50,000 nt of DNA from Chiloscyllium plagiosum (Eukaryota): assembly GCF_004010195.1 (NCBI RefSeq), contig NW_025214742.1, positions 1 through 50,000 on the forward strand, in the 5' to 3' direction. The translations under genes were made by a program, and so were the position numbers. The notes beneath the pieces were generated by a model that made no database searches, was not told the DNA's origin, and worked only from the letters and a program-made list of their open reading frames with translations. Shown here in pieces: positions 3,290-38,300 of this stretch (within the stretch, counting starts at the first letter, position 1; the number at the start of each line of letters is the position of its first letter).

Positions 3290-3915
3290 ACACCACTCCC
3301 CTCACCTCTGTCCGAGGGATCTTTCCACATCCGTCAGAAATTTACTTGTACTTCTACCAATATCATCTACTGCATCCGTTGCACCTGGTGCGGTTCCTCT
3401 ATATCGGGGAGAGAGGACACCTTCTTGCTGATTGTTTCAGAGAACATCTCTGGGACCCACCAACCCCACCGGCCACGACTGAACACTTCAACTCCCCCTC
3501 CCACTCCGTCAAGGACATGCAGGTCCTGGGCCTCCTCCGCCACCGAACTGTTACCACCCGACGCCTGGTGGAGGAATGCCTCATATTTCCCCTTGGGACC
3601 CTGCAACCACATGGGATAAATGTGGATTTCAACAGCTTCCTCATTTCCTCTCCCCCCCCACATTATGTCAGTCCCAAGCCTCCAACTTGGCACCACCCTC
3701 TGGAACTGTCCATCACTCCCCTCTCTGACTTATCACCTTCTTCCCCATCTTCATCCACCTATTGCTTTCCCAGCTACCTTACCTCCAACCCACCCTGCCC
3801 ACCCCCATTTATCTCTCAGCCTGGACATACAAGCCTCATTCCTGAAATGTTGATTCTCCTGCTCCTCGGATGCTGCCTAACTTGCTGTGCATTTCCAGCA
3901 CTACATTCTCAACTT
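3290..3915 (+). mobile_element. Penelope-like element fragment (GIY-YIG endonuclease plus 3' repeat), family B
   Basis: Frameshifted FTCTSTNIIYCIRC..YIGE..LADCFREHL..EHFNSPSHS..LGTLQPHGINVDF; 3' repeat CTCCTGCTCCTCGGATGCTGCC. Confidence 0.85.
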
Positions 3916-4689
3916 TAACCTTTACCTTCCTTAAAGACCTTAATTTCCCCTTCTACGTGGTTGAAGGTGCCCTCCAACGCATCTCAACCATGTCTCGCAC
4001 CTCTGCCCTGAAACCCCACCCGTCCAACCGCAACATGGACAGAACCCCCGGTCCTCACTTTCCACCCCACCAACCTCCGCAACAAACCACATCATCTGCC
4101 AACATTTCCACCACCTACAAATGGACCCCCCCACCAGGGATATATTTCCCTCCCCATCCCTATCCATTTTCCAGAAAGACCGTTCCCTCCTGTTCAGGTC
4201 CACGCCCCCTAACAACCCACTCTCCCTTCCTGGCATCTTCCCCTGCCACCACAGGAATTGCAAAACCTGCGCCCACACCTCCCCCCTCACCTCCATCCAA
4301 GGCCCCAAAGAAGCCTTCCACATCCATCAAAGTTTCACCTCCATAAATGTCATTTATTGTATCTGTTGCTCCTGATGCGGTCTCCGTTACATTGGGGAGA
4401 CTGGATGCCTTCTTGCAGAGTGCTTTAGGGAACATCTCTGGGACACCCGCTCCAATCAACCCCACCACCCCGTGGCCGAACATTTCAATTCCCCCTCCCA
4501 CTCTGCCAAGGACATGCAAGACCTGGGCCTCTTCCACTGCCACTCCCTCACCACTTGACACCTGGAGGAAAAATGCAGTATGTTCCGCCTCGGGACCCTT
4601 CAATCCCAAGGCATCAATATGGGCTTCACCAGTTTCCTCATTTCCCCTCCGCCCACCTTACCCCAGTTCCAATGTCCCAGCTCAGCACC

Positions 4690-4882
4690 TGATTTGGAGA
4701 TGCCGATGTTGGACTGGGGTGGTACAAAGTTAAAAATCACACAACACCAGGTTATAGTCAACCTGGTTTAATTGGAAGCACTAGCTTTCGGAGCACTGCT
4801 CCTTCATCGGTTGTGGAGGACACAATTGAAAGACACAGAATAAACCTATTGGACTATAACCTGGTGTTATGTGATTTTAAAC
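4690..4882 (-). mobile_element. Short family A insertion with internal inverted repeat and ~16-bp target duplication
   Basis: Flanked by TGTCCCAGCTCAGCACC (4673-4689) and TGTCCAGCTCAGCACC (4883-4898); body is the reverse complement of ~90-249, followed by a + strand copy of the same terminus (4838-4882). Confidence 0.85.
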
Positions 4883-5069
4883 TGTCCAGCTCAGCACCAT
4901 CCCCATGACATGACCCACCTGTCAATCTTCTTTCACACCTATTTGCTCCACATTCCTCTCTGACCTATTACCTCCATCCCCACCCCCATTCACCTATTGG
5001 ACTCTTGGCCTACCTTCTCCCCAGCCCCACCCTCCCATTTCTCTCTCCACCCTGGAAGCTCCCAGCTTC

Positions 5070-5105
5070 ATTCCTGATGAAGGGCTTTTGCCCGAAATAT
5101 TGATT
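5070..5105 (+). ncRNA. Minimal type I hammerhead ribozyme motif (family B), stem III decayed
   Basis: CTGATGA-A-GGGC-TTTT-GCCC-GAAA-TATTGA. Confidence 0.7.
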
Positions 5106-5624: not shown

Positions 5625-5696
5625 GGGGATGTAGCTCAGTGGTAGAGCGCATGCTTTGCATGTATGAGGCCCCGGGTTCAATCCCCGGCATCTCCA
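5625..5696 (+). tRNA. tRNA-Ala-TGC: tRNA-Ala (anticodon TGC)
   Basis: 72-nt canonical cloverleaf, A box TAGCTCAGTGG, B box GGTTCAATCC, G3:U70 alanine identity pair, TTTT terminator immediately after (5697-5700). Confidence 0.98.
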
Positions 5697-6130: not shown

Positions 6131-6202
6131 GGGGATGTAGCTCAGTGGTAGAGCGCATGCTTCGCATGTATGAGGTCCCGGGTTCAATCCCCGGCATCTC
6201 CA
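6131..6202 (+). tRNA. tRNA-Ala-CGC: tRNA-Ala (anticodon CGC)
   Basis: 72-nt cloverleaf differing from the upstream gene at 2 positions; G3:U70; TTTT at 6207-6210. Confidence 0.98.
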
Positions 6203-15095: not shown

Positions 15096-17670
15096 TTGAT
15101 TTTGATAAGAGATTGCATTACAGCTATACTGAGGGAGGATATTCCCAGAAATACATCCAGGGAAGTTATTTGGGTGGAACTGAGAAATAAGAAAGGGATA
15201 ATCTCCTTATTGGGATTGTGTTATAGACCCCCTAATAGTCAGAGGGAAATTGGGAAGCAAATTTGTAAGGAGATCTCAGTTATGTGTAAGAATAATAGAG
15301 TGGTTATGGTAGGGGATTTTAACTTTCCAAACATAGACTGGGACTGCCATAGTGCTAAGGGAGAGGAGAGGAATTTGTTAAGTGTGTACAGGAAATTTTT
15401 TTGATTCAACATGTACCTATTAGAGAAGTGCAAAACTTGGCCTACTCTTGGGAAATAAGGCAGGGCAGGTGACTGAGGTGTCAGTGGGGGAGCACTTTGG
15501 GGCCATAATTCTATTAGTTTTAAAATAGTGATGGAAAAGGTTAGACCAGATCTAAAAGTTGAAGTTCTAAATTGGAGGAAGGCTAATTTTGATGGTATTC
15601 GGCAAGAACTTTCAAAAGCTGATTGGGGGCAGATGTTCAAAGGTAAAGGGACGACTGGAAAATGGGAAGCCTCAGAATTGAGATAATGAGGAGTCCAGAG
15701 ACAGTATATTGCAGTCAGGGTGAAAGGAAAGGCTGGTATGTACAGAGAATGCTACATGACTAAAGAAATTGAGGGTTTGGTTAAGAAAAAGAAGGAAGCA
15801 TATGTCAGGTATAGACAGGATAGATCGAATGAATCCTTAGAGTATAAAGGCAGTAAGAGTATGTTTAAGAGGGAAATCAGAAGGGCAAAAAGGGGACATG
15901 AGATAGCTTTGGCAAATAGGGTTAAGGCGAATCCAAAGGATTTTTGCAAAAAGTTTAAGGACAAAAGGGTAACTAGGGAGAGAATAGGGCCCCTCAAAGA
16001 TCAGGAAGGCGGCCTTTGTGTGGAGCCGCAGGAGAAGAGGGAGATACTAAACGAGTATTTTGCATCAGTGTTTACTGTGGAGAAGGACATGGAAGATATA
16101 GAATGTAGGGAAATAGATGGTGACATTTTGAAAAATGTCCATATTACAGAGAAGGAAGTGCTGGATGTCTTGAAACACATAAAAGTGGATAAATCCCCAG
16201 GACCTGATCAGGTATTAAATCCCCACATCCTGATCAGGTATATCCTAGAACTCTGTGGGAAGCTAGGGAAGTGATTGCTGGGCCCCTTGCTGAGATATTT
16301 GTATAATTGATAGTCACAGGTTAGTGCTGGAAGACTGGAGGTTGGCTAACGTGGTGTCCCTATTGAAGAAAGGTTGGGGACTATAGACCAGCAATCCTAA
16401 TATTGGTGGTAGGTACATTTTTGGAGGGAATCCTGAGGGACAGGATGTACATGTATTTGGAAAGGCAAGGACTGATTAGGGACAGTCAACATGGCTTTGT
16501 ACATGGGAAATCATGTCTCACAAACTTGATTGAGTTTTTTGAAGAAGTAACAAAGAAGATTGATGAGGGCAGAGGCAGTAGATGTGATCTATATGGACTT
16601 CAGTAAGGCGTTTGACAAGGTTCCCCATGGGAGACTGGTTAGCAAGGTTAGATCTCATGGAATACAGGGAGAACTAGCCATTTGGATACAGAACTGCTCG
16701 AGGGTAGTGGTGGAGGGTTGTTTTTCAGACTGGAGGCCTGTGACCAGTGGAGTGCCACAAGGATCAGTGCTGGGTCCACTACATTTCATCATTTATATAA
16801 ATGATTTGGATGTGAGCATAAGAGTTTGTAAGTTTGCAGAGGTGTAGTGGACAGTGAAGAAGGTTACCTCCGATTACAACAGGAACTTGATCAAATGGGC
16901 CAATAGGCTGAGGGGTGGCAGATGGAGTTTAATTTAGATAAATGTGAGGTGCTGCATTTTGGGAAAGCAAATCTTAGCAGAACTTACACACTTAATGGTA
17001 AGGTCCTAGGGAATGTTTCTGAACAAAGAGACCTTGGACTGCAGGTGCATAGCTCCTTGAAAGTGGAGTTGCAGGTAGATACAATAGTGAAGGTGGTGTT
17101 TGGTATGCTTTCCTTTATTGGTTAGAGTATTGAGTACAGGAATTGGGAGATCATGTTGCGGCTGTACAGGACATAGGTTAGGCCACTTTTGGAATATTGT
17201 GTGTAATTCTGGTCTCCTTCCTATGGAAGGATGTACTGAAACATGAAAGGGTTCAGAAAAGATTTACAAAGATGTTGCCAGGGTTGAAGGATTTGAGCTA
17301 TAGGGAGAGGTTGAATAGGCTAGAGCTATTTTTCCTGGAGCATCGGAGGCTGCGGGGTGACCTTATAGAGGTTTATAAAATCATGAGGGGCATGGATAGG
17401 ATAAATAGACAAAGTCTCTTCCCTGGGGTGGGGGAGTCCAGAACTAGAGGGCATAGGTTTGGGGTGAGAGGAGAAAGATATACAAAAGACCTAAGGGCAA
17501 CTTTTTCATGCAGAGGGTAGTGTGTTTATGGAATGAGCTGCCAGAGGAAGTGGTGGAAGCTAGTAAAATTGCAACATTTAAAAGGCATCTGGATTGATAT
17601 ATGAATAGGAAGGGTTTGGAGGCCTATGGGCCAGGGGCTGGCAGTTTGGACTAGATTGGGTTGGGATATC
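15096..17670 (+). mobile_element. HER1/CR1 LINE, most of ORF2 (endonuclease plus RT), pseudogenised
   Basis: [55 protein letters not shown]; many stops and frameshifts; tail cut off at 17670. Confidence 0.95.
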
Positions 17671-17830
17671 TTAGCGAGTTCTGAGAAGATTTGTAGCTCA
17701 GGTTGAGGCTCTGGATGTAAGTTTGCTCGCTGAGCTGCAAGGTTCATTTCCAAACGTTTCGTCACCCTACTAGGTAACATCTTCAGTGGGCTTCCGGGCG
17801 AAGCACTGCTGGTAAATCCTTGTTTCTATT
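17671..17830 (-). mobile_element. Terminal fragment of a probable Penelope-like element (family C)
   Basis: CpG-retaining 160-bp segment between the LINE and the DNA-transposon end; carries a complete hammerhead motif. Confidence 0.65.
17750..17789 (-). ncRNA. Minimal type I hammerhead ribozyme, all core nucleotides present
   Basis: Minus strand CCA-CTGAAGA-T-GTTACC-TAGTAG-GGTGAC-GAAA-CG-TT-TGG: stem I CCA/TGG, 6-bp stem II, palindromic ACGT stem III, GUU cleavage triplet. Confidence 0.8.
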
Positions 17831-18085
17831 TACAGAGGAACCTCAATTATCTGAATGAGATGGGCAGGCACTATTTCGTTCAGATAATCAATTATTCAGT
17901 TAATCAATTAAATGCCTTTCCTCTGAGGTTTGGAGTTTTTAAAGTATGCTCCCTGTTCAGGAGACTGCAGCTGCACACAACACGTGAGCCCCCGCCCCCA
18001 ATTCCGCCCAATACTGCCCCCAGCCCCATCCAACCCCGCCCCTGTCCAACTCCACCCTCCGCCCCCCAACCCCACTCCCCGCACC
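17831..18085 (+). mobile_element. Left end of a Tigger/pogo-like non-autonomous DNA transposon
   Basis: TA followed by CAGAGGAACCTCAATTATCTGAA, with inverted subterminal echoes (TTCAGATAATCAA, TTCAGTTAATCAA); right end not found. Confidence 0.55.
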
Positions 18086-18565
18086 TATCTGATCAAGATC
18101 TTGTTGTAATCTGAGGTAACCTTCTTCGCTGTCCACTACACCTTTTGGTGTCATCTGCAAATTTATTAACCATACCCCCTATGTTCACATCTAAATCATT
18201 TATATAAATGACAAACAGCAGGGGACCCAGCACCGATTCTTGTGACACACTGCAGATCACAGGTCTGCAGCCTGAAAAGCAACCCTCACCATCACCTTCT
18301 GTCTTCTACTTTGAGAAGTTCTACATCCAAATGACTAGTTCTCCCTGTATTCCATGTGATCTAACCATGCTAACCAGTCTCCCATGAGGAAGTGGTGGGT
18401 GCACATACAGCTTACAGTATTTAAAAGACATTTGGACAGTCATATGAACAGGAAAGGTTGAGAGGGATATGGGCCAAATGCAGGCAAATGCAACTTGTTG
18501 AATCTGGGAAAACTGGTCGGCATAGACCAATTGAACTGAAGGGCTTGTTTCTTGTGCTGTGTGAC
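18086..18565. mobile_element. CR1 RT fragment (minus, 18086-18387) abutting a CR1 3' end (plus, 18388-18565)
   Basis: Minus [35 protein letters not shown]; plus-strand tail GAACTGAAGGGCTTGTTTCTTGTGCTGT. Confidence 0.85.
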
Positions 18566-19442: not shown

Positions 19443-19919
19443 CTTTAACCCTGAATGAAGTGCCTTTACTCTGTTGATTTTAGGGTTTTTTTCGATATAG
19501 AGTTTTAAAAGTAGAAATATTTTCTAATCGTATTTCGATTAAATACGTGACCAATTCTAAACTTATTTTCAAAAATGCTTATATCCAGTGATTTCAGTAT
19601 AAATACGGTGCAAGTATCAAACTTCCTGGAGGAGGGATTTAAGCCATATTATGGAGGCTGATCGTGTTCATGGTCAATTCGTCTTTTAAGTGTCAATATA
19701 CCTTCTTTATCCTTTAAGTCTATAATAACCTATATTCTTTTTTAAATACATGTAAATATTTAGATGTATACAGGGAGGATATGCTCCTATGACAATATTT
19801 TTTGAAATAAACTGCACTCATTTACACGGCACTGCTGATCCTGGGATTATGAAGTCTCTTTACATTGGAGATCAATGAAAAGGTCAGACATTCCTATTAG
19901 TGCAATGTATGACACTCAG

Positions 19920-20380
19920 TGTGCGGGTCTGCACCGCTCCTTTACCGACAATCAAATTATATCTGGCCCATCATGTTCGGCAGACCGGACCGAAGATGAC
20001 GATAGGGCGGGGTGTGACGGCATGATGATTGACAGCACGAGAGCGAATCGTATCGGTGGGGGCGGGACGTGTAGTTTGATTGACAGGGTTGCGCGGCCAG
20101 TTGAGTGGTCCGGGTGGTTGTGGGCGGGGCTCGAGCCGTGTCTCGCGCTGCTCTGGCCAGCGTGCGTCACAAGAGCTGGAAGAGTCAGTGTGGTTGCGCG
20201 TGATCGAAGGGCGATAGGTAGTGGTGATGGAGATCGAGGCGCCACTGGCACAGCAGCAGGTACAGATAACAGTAGTAACTACCTCTCTCTGTCTCTCAGC
20301 GACAGTTTCGGTGCAGAGAGCAGGGTAAGGTTTCGGTGCAATTAGATCGCAGGCGACCCGGGGTAGGGGGGTAGGGAAAA
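19920..20380 (+). promoter_or_regulatory. CpG-island promoter of an unidentified gene
   Basis: Dense CpG in a CpG-depleted window; GC boxes at 20005-20012, 20059-20068 and 20121-20130; TGATTGACAG at 20026-20035 and 20077-20086; splice donor at 20325. Confidence 0.85.
20185..20324 (+). other. Probable first exon (start approximate)
   Basis: Lies just downstream of the GC boxes, Inr-like TCAGT near 20185, ends at donor AGG|GTAAGG; ATG at 20227 in good Kozak context, open to the donor. Confidence 0.6.
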
Positions 20381-23352
20381 CATTTAGCAAAGGGAGGCAA
20401 ACTAGTTCAACTTTCAAGATAGTTCTATCTGAGCGTGTGACACGAAAACGTTTTCAATGTGCTGAAGAATTATTTACGTATAAATGTGCAGGTTCTTATG
20501 GTTAAAGTAAATTGGGGTGACTACTTTAAGATCGGGTCATTTGTCCATCAGCTCCCTTTCCCTTTTACCCCGCAGTCTTAATGCTCATCTTTGGATTGGA
20601 TTTCCTCATCCGTCTACTCCCACGACATATTTTCGAAGCTTCTGATGATATGAAGCGCAAACGTTGAAACCTGGGCGTTCGCCAAAAGCGTTATTTCAGA
20701 TTCTGCGTCAAACTTATTGCACAGTGCCAAGTCATTCTATTGTACTGAATAGTACTTGAAGGAAGGGTCTGAAAAAAAGGTTGGCCACAGGGAGGTTTGT
20801 CTGTTATCTTGCTGCTCCCCATAACGATAACTTTCGTGCGTGAGCCAGTGCAATGTTTCCCAATCTTTTTGATTTTTCTCAAAAGCTGTTGAGGTCGGTT
20901 GTCGTCTGACCCCTTGAGTTTTCCAGCTGATACTGGGGTGTGATCTTGTCCCCACCCACCAGCCTTTACAGTAACTGAATGGCAGGTGAAAGACAAGCTG
21001 GTCCTATAGGGTTTGGCTCTGTTTATCGGACGTTCAGCAAACATGGGGATTAGGGGAAAAAAATCTATAGTTTCTTCTCTAAACTTTAAACTCTTGCTTT
21101 TCCTCACTAACCTGCCAAATCGATTGTTCCTCCTTTATTTGTCCTGATATTTCAATTCGGTGTATTGTCACGTGCCTTCCATTCGTGTTTGGCTGGATTC
21201 CTGACCTTTAGTACGAGTTACAGCGATTGTAGAACAGCATTTTTCTTCTGGTAGTAAATGATTAATAGGTGGTTTGACTGCTTTGCGTGATGTTGTGAAA
21301 TATTTACTGTACGGTGAAGGTCATTAGCTGCAGAAAGAATCTCAATTGTTGCAGCACATGTCGTTTCTTCTCCCTCCGTTTGTTCCGGCTGGATCGACAG
21401 ATTTCGGATCAAATTCTGGTCAGATTAATAACAATCAATTTCCTGACTGTGTTGTATATAGTTAAAGGATGAAAATGGACAAAAACAGATATGTGAACAA
21501 TAAAAAAATTAAAGAACAGTGAGCTCTGATAAGGAAATATTTTAATTTCTATTTCTCTGAAATCTGCAACCATCCTCATTTTATCATTTGAAAGGTTCAC
21601 AGCTGTGTCAAGCTGTTGCGTCTGGGTGCCTTTGCTAAGTTTTTACTTAAAATCTAATTGCCTTTTGCATAGCTATTGTTTCATACTTTAATTGTTATTT
21701 TAAATGTTTAGTTTCCTCCTCTAAGGACGTGTTTTCTTTAAATCCTGTATTCAAATTGGGGCGCATTAAGAACATTACAAAAAATCTCAGTTTACTAGAG
21801 TCATCTTAAAAAAAAACTGTGCCTAGTTGTGTCAAAAGTTCCTTTGTCCACTTGTGCATCACTAACAGTTGACATTTTTATATAGCATCTTTTGGGGTAA
21901 AATATCTTTGGGTGATTCATAGGAGCATTATCAAACAACACTAAACCATGTGCGATATTCAGGCATATGACTGCCTGGTCAAAAATGTAGATTTCAAGTC
22001 TTTCTTTGAGGAAGCAGAGATTTGTGGAATAAGAGTTTACTTTGTTGCTTCACATGTGCAAAAGACCAGCTTGCATGTTTTACGTAGTGCACTAGTTTTA
22101 GCCATGATGGCTGCCAGCTAAATAATTGTAGTCTGTGACTGGAGCCTGGCAGTTAAGGCAATGAAAAGGCAAAAGCAATAGTCTGCTTGGAAATGGAAAG
22201 AGAGTTGGAGGTAAATCTGGATTTGTTGACTTGAGTACCTATTTGTATTTGTTGCCAGTGGATTGATAGTGTCTATTAGAGTTCCTTAACTTTATACACG
22301 AGCTTTCAAAATTGTAGTAACTTTTTTCTTTTTGGCTGAGAAACCACAATCTTAACAACACATAGTCACTCATTAGTTCATCTTATCATTGTAAGAATCT
22401 GCATCTGAGTGAATCTCTGCAAATCCGTTCATAATTCCAATCATAAGCCAATCACATTTTTGAACTAGCAGCAGGATAGTTGATGCAGCTGCCTTTAAAG
22501 CTGATGCAAATGAATGGTTGGATCAACACTAAGACCATTCCCATATCAATGAATTCTGGAGTTAGCCAAGGATTTATCCCCTCAACTCTCTTTGAGGTAG
22601 ATGCTGCATTTGCTGACATATGTTGTAAACATATTCCAAATGTATCATGACACCTGGCTTTACCTTCCCACCAACTCTCTTCACTTAACCACTATCTTTA
22701 CATATTGTCTGATTTATTTATCTGACATGCTCACAAATTAAAATTTGGAAAGAACAAAGCTATTGCATTTGCACCTAGCTACCAACTTCATTCCATTCTG
22801 ACAGCTAGCTCTGTCTGAATCAGAATTTGCCAGTATTCCACTTGACCCTGACATGGATAATAAATCTCTCATACTTGCTATCACACAGACTACCTGCTTA
22901 TAATGTCCCACTGCTGCTGAAATCCTAATCCTTTGTTATTTTCAGAATTGATTATTCGAGTACCTGCCACCTGATGAGCACAAGAAGTGGTGACTAAATG
23001 ATTGGTCAAAAAGCTGGTTTTAAGGAACCTGAGAAAGGACCGGTTTGAAGAGGGAACTGGAGCAATAGCTTCCACACAGTTAAAGGGATGTTTCCCATTT
23101 TACACTTCCACTAGTGGGATAATGCACAAGAAGCCTAGGTGAGAACATTGTAATGTTTTTAGGGAGCTGAAAGATTTCATAATACTGTGAAAGGGATAAG
23201 TCAAAGGGCTTTTAAGCACAAGGATAACTATTTGAAATTTGAGCTGTGCAGAACCATGATCCAATATAGGGAAATGAGCCTAGAGATAATTGAGCAGACA
23301 TTGGGTTGAAATGAACTGTAGAGTTTTGGTTCAACTGACATTTGTGGGAAAT

Positions 23353-35324: not shown

Positions 35325-38300
35325 ATGGCTAGCCATTTGCTTAGGTGATGCACCTGGAATGTCAAGGGAAGTAATTCACCAATCAAAAGGAAAAATATAT
35401 TATAAAGTCTCAAAAAAAAAAGGGTCTTACAGGACACACATCTACTTGACAAAGAACATTTAAAGCTACAACAGAGTGGATTTGATCAGGCTTTTTTCTC
35501 ATCTTTCAGTTCAAAAAATAGGAGAGTAGCCATTCTTATTCGGAAGAATCTTCCTTTCCAAATGTTAACCCAGATAAAAGATGAGTCTGGACGGAATATT
35601 TTGATCAAAGCCCTAATACATAGTCATAGAGTCACAGCATGGAAACAGACCCTTCAGTCCAACTCGTCCATGCCAGCCAGATATCCCAACCCAATCTAGT
35701 CCCACCTGACAGCACCCGGCCCATATCCTTCCAATCTCTTCCTATTCATATAGCCATCTAGATGCCTCTTGGAGAGGAATATGGAATTTTGAATCTTTAT
35801 TGCCCCCCAGTGCATCCCTTTTAAATTTGTAACACAGCGTTCTCTAAGTTGATGACTTTTGAAGTCTGCCATACAATTATAGGAGGAGATTTTAACTATA
35901 TTATGGACTCTGAGACAGATGGGATACCTAAGAGCATGACAGGTATATCTTTGACATCTAGACAACTGGCAGATCTGAATAAGGAGCTCGGGCTAGTGGA
36001 TGTACGGAGGTGCCTTCACCCCCAGGGCAGAGACTTTACTTTCTACTCTAACCCACACAAGTAACATACCAGAATTGATGTTTTCTTGACCTCTTGACCC
36101 TTTTGAATTCCATACTGTCTTGTAAAATAGGTAATATAGCTATTTCTGATCATGCTGCAGTATATATGGAAGCCAAGATTAGGGATGATGGGATAGGCCC
36201 CTGACATTGGCGTAATGATCCCTTCTTATTGAAGGATAGCAAGTTTATGAAGTGTTTTTCACAGGAATTCAAAACCTTCTGGGAAATTAATTCAGGTATG
36301 GCCTGTAACCCATCGATGATGTGGGAGACCACTAAGGCATATGTGTGAGGTTTGGTCATCTCATATTTTGTGACCTGGAAAAGACCAAAAGGAAAGCAGC
36401 AGCACCTGCTCAAGGCACACTTGAAGGCAGCGTATGTTGATAGGTCCTCCATTACTAAGCTACAAAGGATCACAGCCCTAAGGGCAGCCTTGAATACCGC
36501 ACTTAACCAAACATCAAAGAGGGAAACATTATTCGCAAAGCAGAGATTATTTGAATATGGCGACAAGCCTGGCAGATACCTAGCATACCTTACTAGAAAG
36601 AAAAAGGCTCTTCAAGCCATTACGTGCATTAGAGAAAGTGCTGTTACTCTGACTTGTGATCATAAAAAGATCAATACAGCCTTTCGAAAGTTCTATTTTG
36701 AACTATATAAATCACAGGACTGAGAGGATAGATCTGGGAAGATGGAATCCTTCTTTAAAAATTTGGCCCATCCAAGCTTAACCTCTGAGCAGGTGTCGAT
36801 CTTAAATGCCCCCCTGACAACCCAGGAGGTATTCAATGCGATTAGGCAGCTTCAGAGTGGCAAAGAGCCTGGACCAGATGGATTCCAGGTTGAGTTTTAT
36901 AAAGAATTTATAGGGGAACTGGCCGGGTCACTCATAAATATGTACAATTACTCGCACAGTCAGGGCTGTCTCCCGCCTTCGTTGAGAGAAGCAAACACCC
37001 CTCTTACTCTTAAGGGAAAGGCCCTAGAAGATTACTCATCATATAGACCCATATTCTTACTAAATGTGGATTTCAAAATTCTTTCCAAAATGTTAGCATT
37101 AAGATTGGGGAGGGTCTTAACATACATCAAAAGAGGACCAGACGGGGTTTATAAAGGGCTGCAGGTCAACTAATAACACTAGAAGTGTCTTAAATATGAT
37201 ACAAGCCTGTAACAGGGAACAATACTGGCTTTAGTTGTCTCCTTGGATGCAGAGAAGGCATTTGATCGGGTAGAATGGCCATATCTTTTCTATACACTGG
37301 AAAGGTTCGGTGTTGGAGAGAGATTTACTAAATGGGTTTCAGTATTATATAATCCCAAAGCAGCGGTGATCACCAATGGTTTAAGCTCGGATAGTTTTAG
37401 TGTTAGCAGGAGTTGTCAGCAGGGATTTCTTCTTTCTCCAATATTGTTCACGCTAGCGATTAAACCACTGGAGGAAGCTATACGAACTGACCCTAATGTA
37501 GCAGCTCTGAGGGTTGGATCGGGCAAACATAAAATCACTCTATATGCAATGATGTCGTCCTCCCCTTAAGTGATCCTTTGATAACGGTGCCCCGTCTAAT
37601 CCAAGTGATCAATTTATTTGGGATGTTCTCGGGCTATAAAATTAATTTTGTGAAATCTGAGGCATGTGCCGTTGGGAGGTCTTGTCAGTGTATCCAATTT
37701 ACCAGACAGATCTTGCTTTCCCTTTCAGTGGTCACAAAAAGGTTTTCTGTACTTAATTATTTTTATCACCCCAGTATTTGGTCAGCTGTATAAAGCTAAT
37801 TTTGTGCACTTATTAGAGAAAGTAAGACAGGACCTTCAACGCTGGGGAGATCTCCCAATATCCTGGTTAGGCAAAGTAGCCTAGTTAAGATGAATGTCCT
37901 ACCTCATCTTCTATATCCTATGAGAATGCTCCCCTTGACGCTGCCGAGACAGGCGTTGCATTAGCATTATGGCTGGCTTGGCTCCTTTATTTGGAATCAT
38001 AAACTGCCCCTTATCAAATTAGAAAAGCTGCAGCTCCCTCAAGCAAGGGGAGGATTGGACTTTCCAGACTTTACGAGGTATCAATTGAGCTCCTTATTAT
38101 CTTATGTAGCTGATTGGGGGTCACAAGAGACCCAATCTGGTTAGATATTGAGACCTCTCAAGCAAAATGTCCCCTCATCAATCTTTTGTTTATGGACAAG
38201 ATGAGAACTATTATGGACTACTGTAAAAAACATATTGTATTAAATACAATTAAAGCCTGGAGGATAATGTGGCAAGATGAGGGTAACCTTCAAAAAAACC

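Follow-up and report, generated by a model that had tools for sequence, protein, structure and literature searches.

The 50,000-nucleotide stretch of Chiloscyllium plagiosum DNA analyzed here (the window) contains a lone, mutated, 160-base terminal-repeat fragment that is very probably a relic of a likely Penelope-like retrotransposon, probably of the Penelope/Poseidon type, and whose hammerhead motif is predicted to have little or no activity and to need a dimer or the protein of the element. The Penelope/Poseidon assignment is favored because the family has two 3' ends 40 bases apart, an ATG at stem II, and a few fold-back junctions. The features of this region are collected in Table 1.

Table 1. 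Coordinates of the terminal-repeat fragment, its hammerhead motif, and the adjoining repeats in the window
Feature	Position	Strand	Remarks
Terminal-repeat fragment (likely pLTR and tail) of a high-copy repeat, 160 bp	17672..17831	-	3' end at 17671/2
Optional 40-base 3' extension (tail)	17672..17711	-	Lies between two preferred family ends
Open frame, 36 codons from ATG to element end	17673..17780	-	ATG at start of stem II
Minimal type I hammerhead motif (min-HHR)	17750..17789	-	From sequence reading and descriptor scan
Stem I	5' arm 17789-17787, 3' arm 17752-17750	-	3 bp
First core box, C3-A9	17780..17786	-	N7 = 17782
Extra U between A9 and stem II	17779	-	
Stem II and loop II	17761..17778	-	17778-17773 paired with 17766-17761
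Second core box, G12-A15.1	17760-17757	-	
C15.2, G16.2, U16.1	17756, 17755, 17754	-	
Second core box and palindromic ACGU	17754..17760	-	ACGU = 17757-17754, predicted site of trans-pairing in a dimer (model of PMC4209133)
H17	17753	-	U in the window copy; predicted cut on its 3' side
3' part of a LINE, stopping at the element end	17000..17671	+	9 other copies in the window; loose ends behind 17671
Different repeat interrupting the element, beginning after TA	17832..17940	+	357/352/269 loose ends before 17831

The original prediction had read the minus strand as a hammerhead with intact core boxes, a 6-bp stem II, a 3-bp stem I, and a palindromic ACGU. That reading matches the sequence exactly from 17789 to 17750, and all of these parts are present, stem II measuring 6-7 bp since a U-G pair (17772/17767) lengthens it in the window copy. 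The core boxes CUGANGA and GAAA are accompanied by an NUH cleavage triplet and by the G10.1-C11.1 pair (G17778-C17761), and the palindrome occupies the place of helix III (15.1-16.1), where its 4-mer self-duplex has a predicted energy of only -1.7 kcal/mol. A search for type I hammerheads had been proposed along with the prediction; when a descriptor of this type was run on both strands of the 50 kb, the motif was the single match, and in 200 order-3 Markov simulations the strict form of the descriptor gave 0 matches and the loose form 0.04 per window.

In folding calculations, stem II of the window copy was predicted to pair with a probability of 0.97-1.0 in every context, and stem I with a probability of ∼0.6 in a 51-nt piece that dropped to at most 0.02 in all eight longer contexts. 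A "masking hairpin" upstream (17808-17804 with 17788-17784, predicted at 0.54-0.62) was considered as a regulatory switch and rejected: stem I stayed at 0.02 or less when that arm was absent, and it was at 0.05 or less in 230/300 and 276/300 shuffles. In the same test, core pairing was as strong in 24/300 and 5/300 shuffles.

Minimal hammerheads in the terminal repeats (pLTRs) of metazoan Penelope-like elements have been described since 2014 (Cervera and De la Pena, PMC4209133). The min-HHRs listed there include those of fish Poseidon, Xena, and Neptune along with those of coelacanth and Xenopus, two animals in which single min-HHR copies number in the thousands. The shark motif has the same core boxes, extra base before stem II, long stem II (5-8 bp in that paper), short stem I, G10.1-C11.1 pair, and C-G palindrome without loop 3 as these min-HHRs, and it is likewise dispersed in great numbers as single truncated copies; its 3-bp stem I is at the short end of their range. 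Supplement file 2 of the paper has 0 entries under shark, Callorhinchus, skate, or Leucoraja. Penelope-like elements are reported to be expanded in the whale shark (10.1101/443036), and in our literature search the shark family was undescribed, although Repbase and bioRxiv supplements, which lay outside that search, may contain it.

To place the fragment in its repeat family, public runs were aligned to 17630-17940 at 80% likeness (4 of 24 runs, three of DNA and one of RNA). The aligned DNA contigs numbered 19,519, 18,397, and 12,838 for organisms A, C, and B, respectively, and were mostly 90-95% alike; these counts include both flanking repeats, and depth is not equivalent to copy number. Together, the motif and this high-copy alignment support the proposal that the repeat carries a minimal type I hammerhead like those of Penelope-like elements. 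No second copy of the 17672-17831 element was found within the 50-kb window.

In each of the three DNA runs, family copies favor two 3' end points, which are separated by 40 bases. Loose contig ends accumulate before 17671 (314, 307, and 240 contigs in runs X5, X14, and X9, respectively, with 187 more beside the 307, the site being 17671/2) and before 17712 (251, 246, and 186 contigs in the same runs), and the flanks beyond both ends are unrelated among contigs (agreement 0.36-0.38). The motif thus lies 78-117 bases from the distal end of the family. Of 15 joints listed (18 in total), 4 are strand reversals that fall at 17785-17790, each in one contig; these reversals are few and confounded by alignment limits, and they fit what is expected of inverted 5'-truncated copies.

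Within the motif, the variation listed for the family affects N7, loop II, the outer stem I pair, CpG bases, and H17, as judged from the 40 of 113 differences that were listed, so that a change at G12 (17760, in a CpG) may lie outside them. N7 (17782) varies in 0.6-14% of DNA depth, and both outer stem I bases (17789 and 17750) vary among the differences listed, these changes being unphased. In the palindrome, another base replaces the C in 17-24% and the G in 28-45% of DNA depth, so that many family copies have lost it.

On its distal side, the fragment adjoins a LINE that we take to be CR1-like. The normal continuation of the 3' region of this LINE is missing beside the element, and a target-site duplication is therefore unreadable. 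The repeat that interrupts the other side is presumably a Tigger/pogo-like terminus; neither its far end nor the continuation of the element was found when they were looked for. The start of this interrupting element includes a 43-base inverted repeat (17846-17888, 77% match) with a strong predicted hairpin.

The arrangement of start codon, cleavage site, and 3' ends resembles that of Poseidon of Anolis carolinensis (PAc), as described by Frangieh et al. (2024, PMC11167929). In PAc, the ORF starts at stem II, C3 and G8 precede the ATG, the cut falls 26 bases behind the ATG, and two starts of reverse transcription (the distal at about +111-118) delimit a tail of 30-40 bp. In the shark fragment, the ATG (17780) likewise stands at the start of stem II behind C3 and G8; counted from it, the predicted cut is at +28 (versus +26 in PAc), and the two 3' ends that define the tail are at +69 and +109 (versus initiation at +111-118). 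A tail is a general trait of Penelope-like elements (PMC8557442). This likeness is one of position and not of alignment. PAc is an intact element for which cleavage assisted by its protein has been shown, whereas the window copy is a fragment. Cleavage of PAc needs the protein of the element and is dispensable for insertion in vitro (PMC11167929).

The 36-codon open frame would by itself be weak evidence of coding. When its peptide was used to search longer proteins, 0 of 6 candidates were true relatives, and among proteins of similar length the search gave no candidate; two phmmer matches, to tandem-repeat proteins of an alga and a moth, were rejected as sums of weak matches. Five frames of the window gave no match in Pfam (0/5). 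Within the 50-kb window, no RT/GIY-YIG ORF adjoins the 17672-17831 fragment. RT/GIY-YIG remnants at 3317-3537 and 3933-4671 (+) are 52-72% identical in their main stretches, and the second of them 68-72% identical, to a protein of Chiloscyllium punctatum whose Pfam matches to GIY-YIG and RVT_1 are weak and under the cut-offs. Their similarity to that protein supports a shark-like host. The remnants were rejected as the coding part of the hammerhead family, their ends having no blastn match to the element; a cysteine-rich linker suggests, by the account in PMC8557442, that they belong to the Neptune group.

Upstream of the core, depth in run X5 falls steeply, from 386k (17773-83) through 203k, 50k, and 10k to 3.8k (17817-27), a drop that is confounded by CpG decay, by the differences of the window copy itself at 17792-17822, and by alignment limits. 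If taken at face value, this drop indicates that most aligned copies are short, and the family could then be a non-autonomous short retroposon, either a dispersed monomer of a non-LTR retrozyme or a SINE-like derivative, that has a Penelope-type end and is without a coding partner of its own sequence. The lack of a relative in the protein searches with the frame peptide is in keeping with such a retroposon, as is the reported presence of non-LTR retrozymes, with a mean unit of 363 bp, in the one chondrichthyan genome sampled in a survey of vertebrates (Li, Clavereau, Pollet 2026, 10.64898/2026.07.22.740005). The window copy shares with the retrozymes described there a type I hammerhead, non-coding character, and probably derivation from Penelope-like terminal repeats; in contrast, those retrozymes are tandem units that each have a hammerhead, and the window copy is solitary in 50 kb with no tandem partner. 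In addition, some family copies continue past 17811 and 17831, where the window copy stops at 17831, and the positions of the ATG and the tail match those of the autonomous Poseidon (PMC11167929). A short retroposon is therefore an unlikely source of the fragment, and we continue to regard it as a relic of a Penelope-like element.

The window copy itself is altered at the cleavage nucleotide. The family base at 17753 is C, which accounts for 97.9, 97.8, and 96.7% of the depth of the three DNA runs and for 182/203 RNA reads, so the family triplet is GUC and the GUU is a change of the window copy's own; cutting after GUU, which the original prediction gave as a trait of the family, does not hold at this level. 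GUU is permitted but stands near the bottom of the NUH triplet ranking (PMC8879150). Since context matters and GUU-cleaving ribozymes can perform well (PMC9217987), and since GUU is frequent among natural min-HHRs (PMC4209133), the C17U change alone is not proof of inactivity. We nevertheless predict that the window copy is nearly or wholly inactive, because it combines this low-ranked triplet with a stem I probability of 0.02 or less and has no partner in the window, and because single min-HHRs were uncleaved and dimers cleaved weakly in the experiments reported in PMC4209133.

Relative to the family majority, the window copy has at least 10 differences in 160 bases (6.2%), two of which (17720 and 17738) may be subfamily variants; none of these 10 is at a CpG, and one is at the cleavage nucleotide. 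By contrast, all six CpGs of 17672-17831 are intact, in a family with losses of 17-45% at every CpG base listed; the observed/expected CpG ratio is 0.69 for the element, 0.10 for the adjacent LINE, and 0.28 for the window. Local protection from methylation is not evident, the adjacent LINE being CpG-poor. The copy had been called apparently intact and young: its CpGs agree with this description, but its non-CpG differences, including that at the cleavage nucleotide, do not. The CpG retention sits oddly with a divergence of ∼6%, and it is in part a selection effect of this copy having been noticed for its intact core. Dating, and any inference of orthology, from shared 31-mers was rejected: organisms B and C share 0.62 of the words that were sampled, yet in 70 of the 206 words there is at most one listed difference, and other copies are a possible source of them. 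No RNA data set was listed as sharing the words, which speaks neither for nor against. None of the aligned pieces listed spanned the stretch.

The RNA reads come from a single-cell poly(A) data set of organism A (run X21, of which ∼2% was analyzed). It gave 631 aligned reads, 13 of them at 95-99% likeness and 0 at 99% or more; the reads speak for the family and are not assignable to the window copy. Across 17707-17783, first mates on the plus strand outnumbered those on the minus strand three- to six-fold per bin (121-245 versus 33-41), and the adjacent LINE, whose sense strand is plus, had the reverse bias (52 versus 200). If the LINE RNA is mostly sense, the family RNA would be mostly of the ribozyme strand. 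Read ends did not pile up at the cut site or elsewhere in this run; the anole RNA-seq described in PMC11167929 likewise has no ends at the cut site.

Several variants were more frequent in RNA than in DNA: 17750 (119/202 reads versus 7-11% of DNA), 17789 (63/83 versus 37-42%), 17782 (39/138 versus 0.6-14%), 17768 (48/166 versus <1%), and 17746 (75/210 versus ∼3.5%), in a comparison that is unphased, draws its RNA from another individual than its DNA, and measures the two differently. The variants at 17750 and 17789 would constitute a compensatory change of stem I from C-G to U-A if they occur on the same molecules, which is only a lead. It is possible that the five variants mark a transcribed sister subfamily.

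The retained CpGs, the intact core boxes, stem II, and palindrome, and the enrichment of family RNA on the ribozyme strand might also be explained if the window copy were a recent insertion of a small subfamily, or had been kept by selection to cleave a read-through host transcript. We consider this very unlikely. In the three DNA runs, the letter of the window copy reaches no more than 0.9-4.3% of depth at 17681, 17753, and 17792 and no more than ∼5% at 17709, which argues against a sizeable subfamily; the copy has since been interrupted by another repeat; and RNA matches at 99% likeness or more and a pile-up of read ends are both absent, the latter blank being shared with the anole (PMC11167929). 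Moreover, choosing this copy for its intact core biases the sample toward CpG retention.

No hammerhead match was obtained from Rfam at the gathering threshold, and at E values of up to 10 the region 17400-18100 gave four weak, unrelated matches and no hammerhead; this poor scoring would be expected because such models include a helix III, which the motif lacks. The folding energy of the 40-nt motif is unremarkable (z = -1.31; 20/200 shuffles equally good), and the significance of the motif rests on its core boxes and helix geometry, not on folding energy. A hammerhead pattern scan of viral contigs and prokaryote genomes gave 0 matches in each. In metagenomes it gave seven loci (L001-L007), all from one data set and with the same minimal hammerhead layout; they represent a different dispersed repeat with no blastn match to the window and have GUU in 5 of 7 cases. 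L001 carries an inverted copy of itself. Compared with the window copy, these loci have every stem II cell paired (100%), with a double change in one case and a single change in another; most bases of this comparison were fixed by the search pattern, the loci constitute one family, and shuffles were not exceeded (81-225/500). The loci illustrate the architecture rather than prove covariation. A chance origin of the motif within repeat DNA is hardly credible: the blank Rfam search, the ordinary folding energy, and the ∼2 matches per simulated window of a relaxed descriptor would allow it, but the strict descriptor found nothing in 200 simulations, and an unrelated metagenome repeat, if one pattern-selected family, has the same layout with a double change in a fully paired stem II.

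The window includes other features of note. A relaxed scan gave six hammerhead-like matches versus ∼2 expected, and four worn hammerhead-like motifs lie in other repeat families at 5074 (+), 4810 (-), 3258 (-), and 123 (+). The motif at 5074 comes after the RT/GIY-YIG remnant at 3933-4671, those at 123 and 4810 have a common downstream repeat (88% over 107 bases), and around the latter, at 4690-4900, a short repeat is nested with its own inverted copy (43 bases, 86%) in the manner of a fold-back insertion. Two near-identical tRNA genes (5625-5696 and 6131-6202 (+); Rfam 70 and 69 bits) are ∼500 bases apart and differ in the anticodon loop. A CpG-rich segment at 19800-20500 (observed/expected 0.97) has overlapping open frames, and broken frames at 36349-37569 (+) are, we assume, those of an L1/Tx1-type reverse transcriptase.

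Based on the layouts in PMC4209133 and PMC11167929, we infer that full elements of this family would be transcribed through tandem terminal repeats. As the hammerhead overlaps the start of the ORF, cleavage behind GUC would take place 28 bases downstream of the ATG. The hammerhead lacks a stem III and, to fold, would need either a second copy, with ACGU pairing in trans, or the protein of the element. Two alternative start sites of reverse transcription, ∼69 and ∼109 bases downstream of the ATG, would account for the two 3' ends observed among genomic copies, and insertions would mostly be short and 5'-truncated. A bolder and improbable, though not negligible, extension of this model is that the family hammerhead still works and that its cut, by removing the start codon of the element itself, would act as a protein-triggered switch from mRNA to reverse-transcription template; the putative sister subfamily over-represented in RNA, with the outer stem I pair apparently changed from C-G to U-A, a U at N7, and an altered loop II, would then still be under selection for cleavage.

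The finding adds one shark-type family to the known Penelope-like hammerheads and is of modest importance in that respect. A single damaged copy is a poor start, but a family as abundant as this one would allow a test of selection across thousands of copies. The presence in a distant vertebrate of the layout known from anole Poseidon, with an ATG at stem II, a cleavage site within the first codons, and a 40-base tail, suggests that this layout is old.
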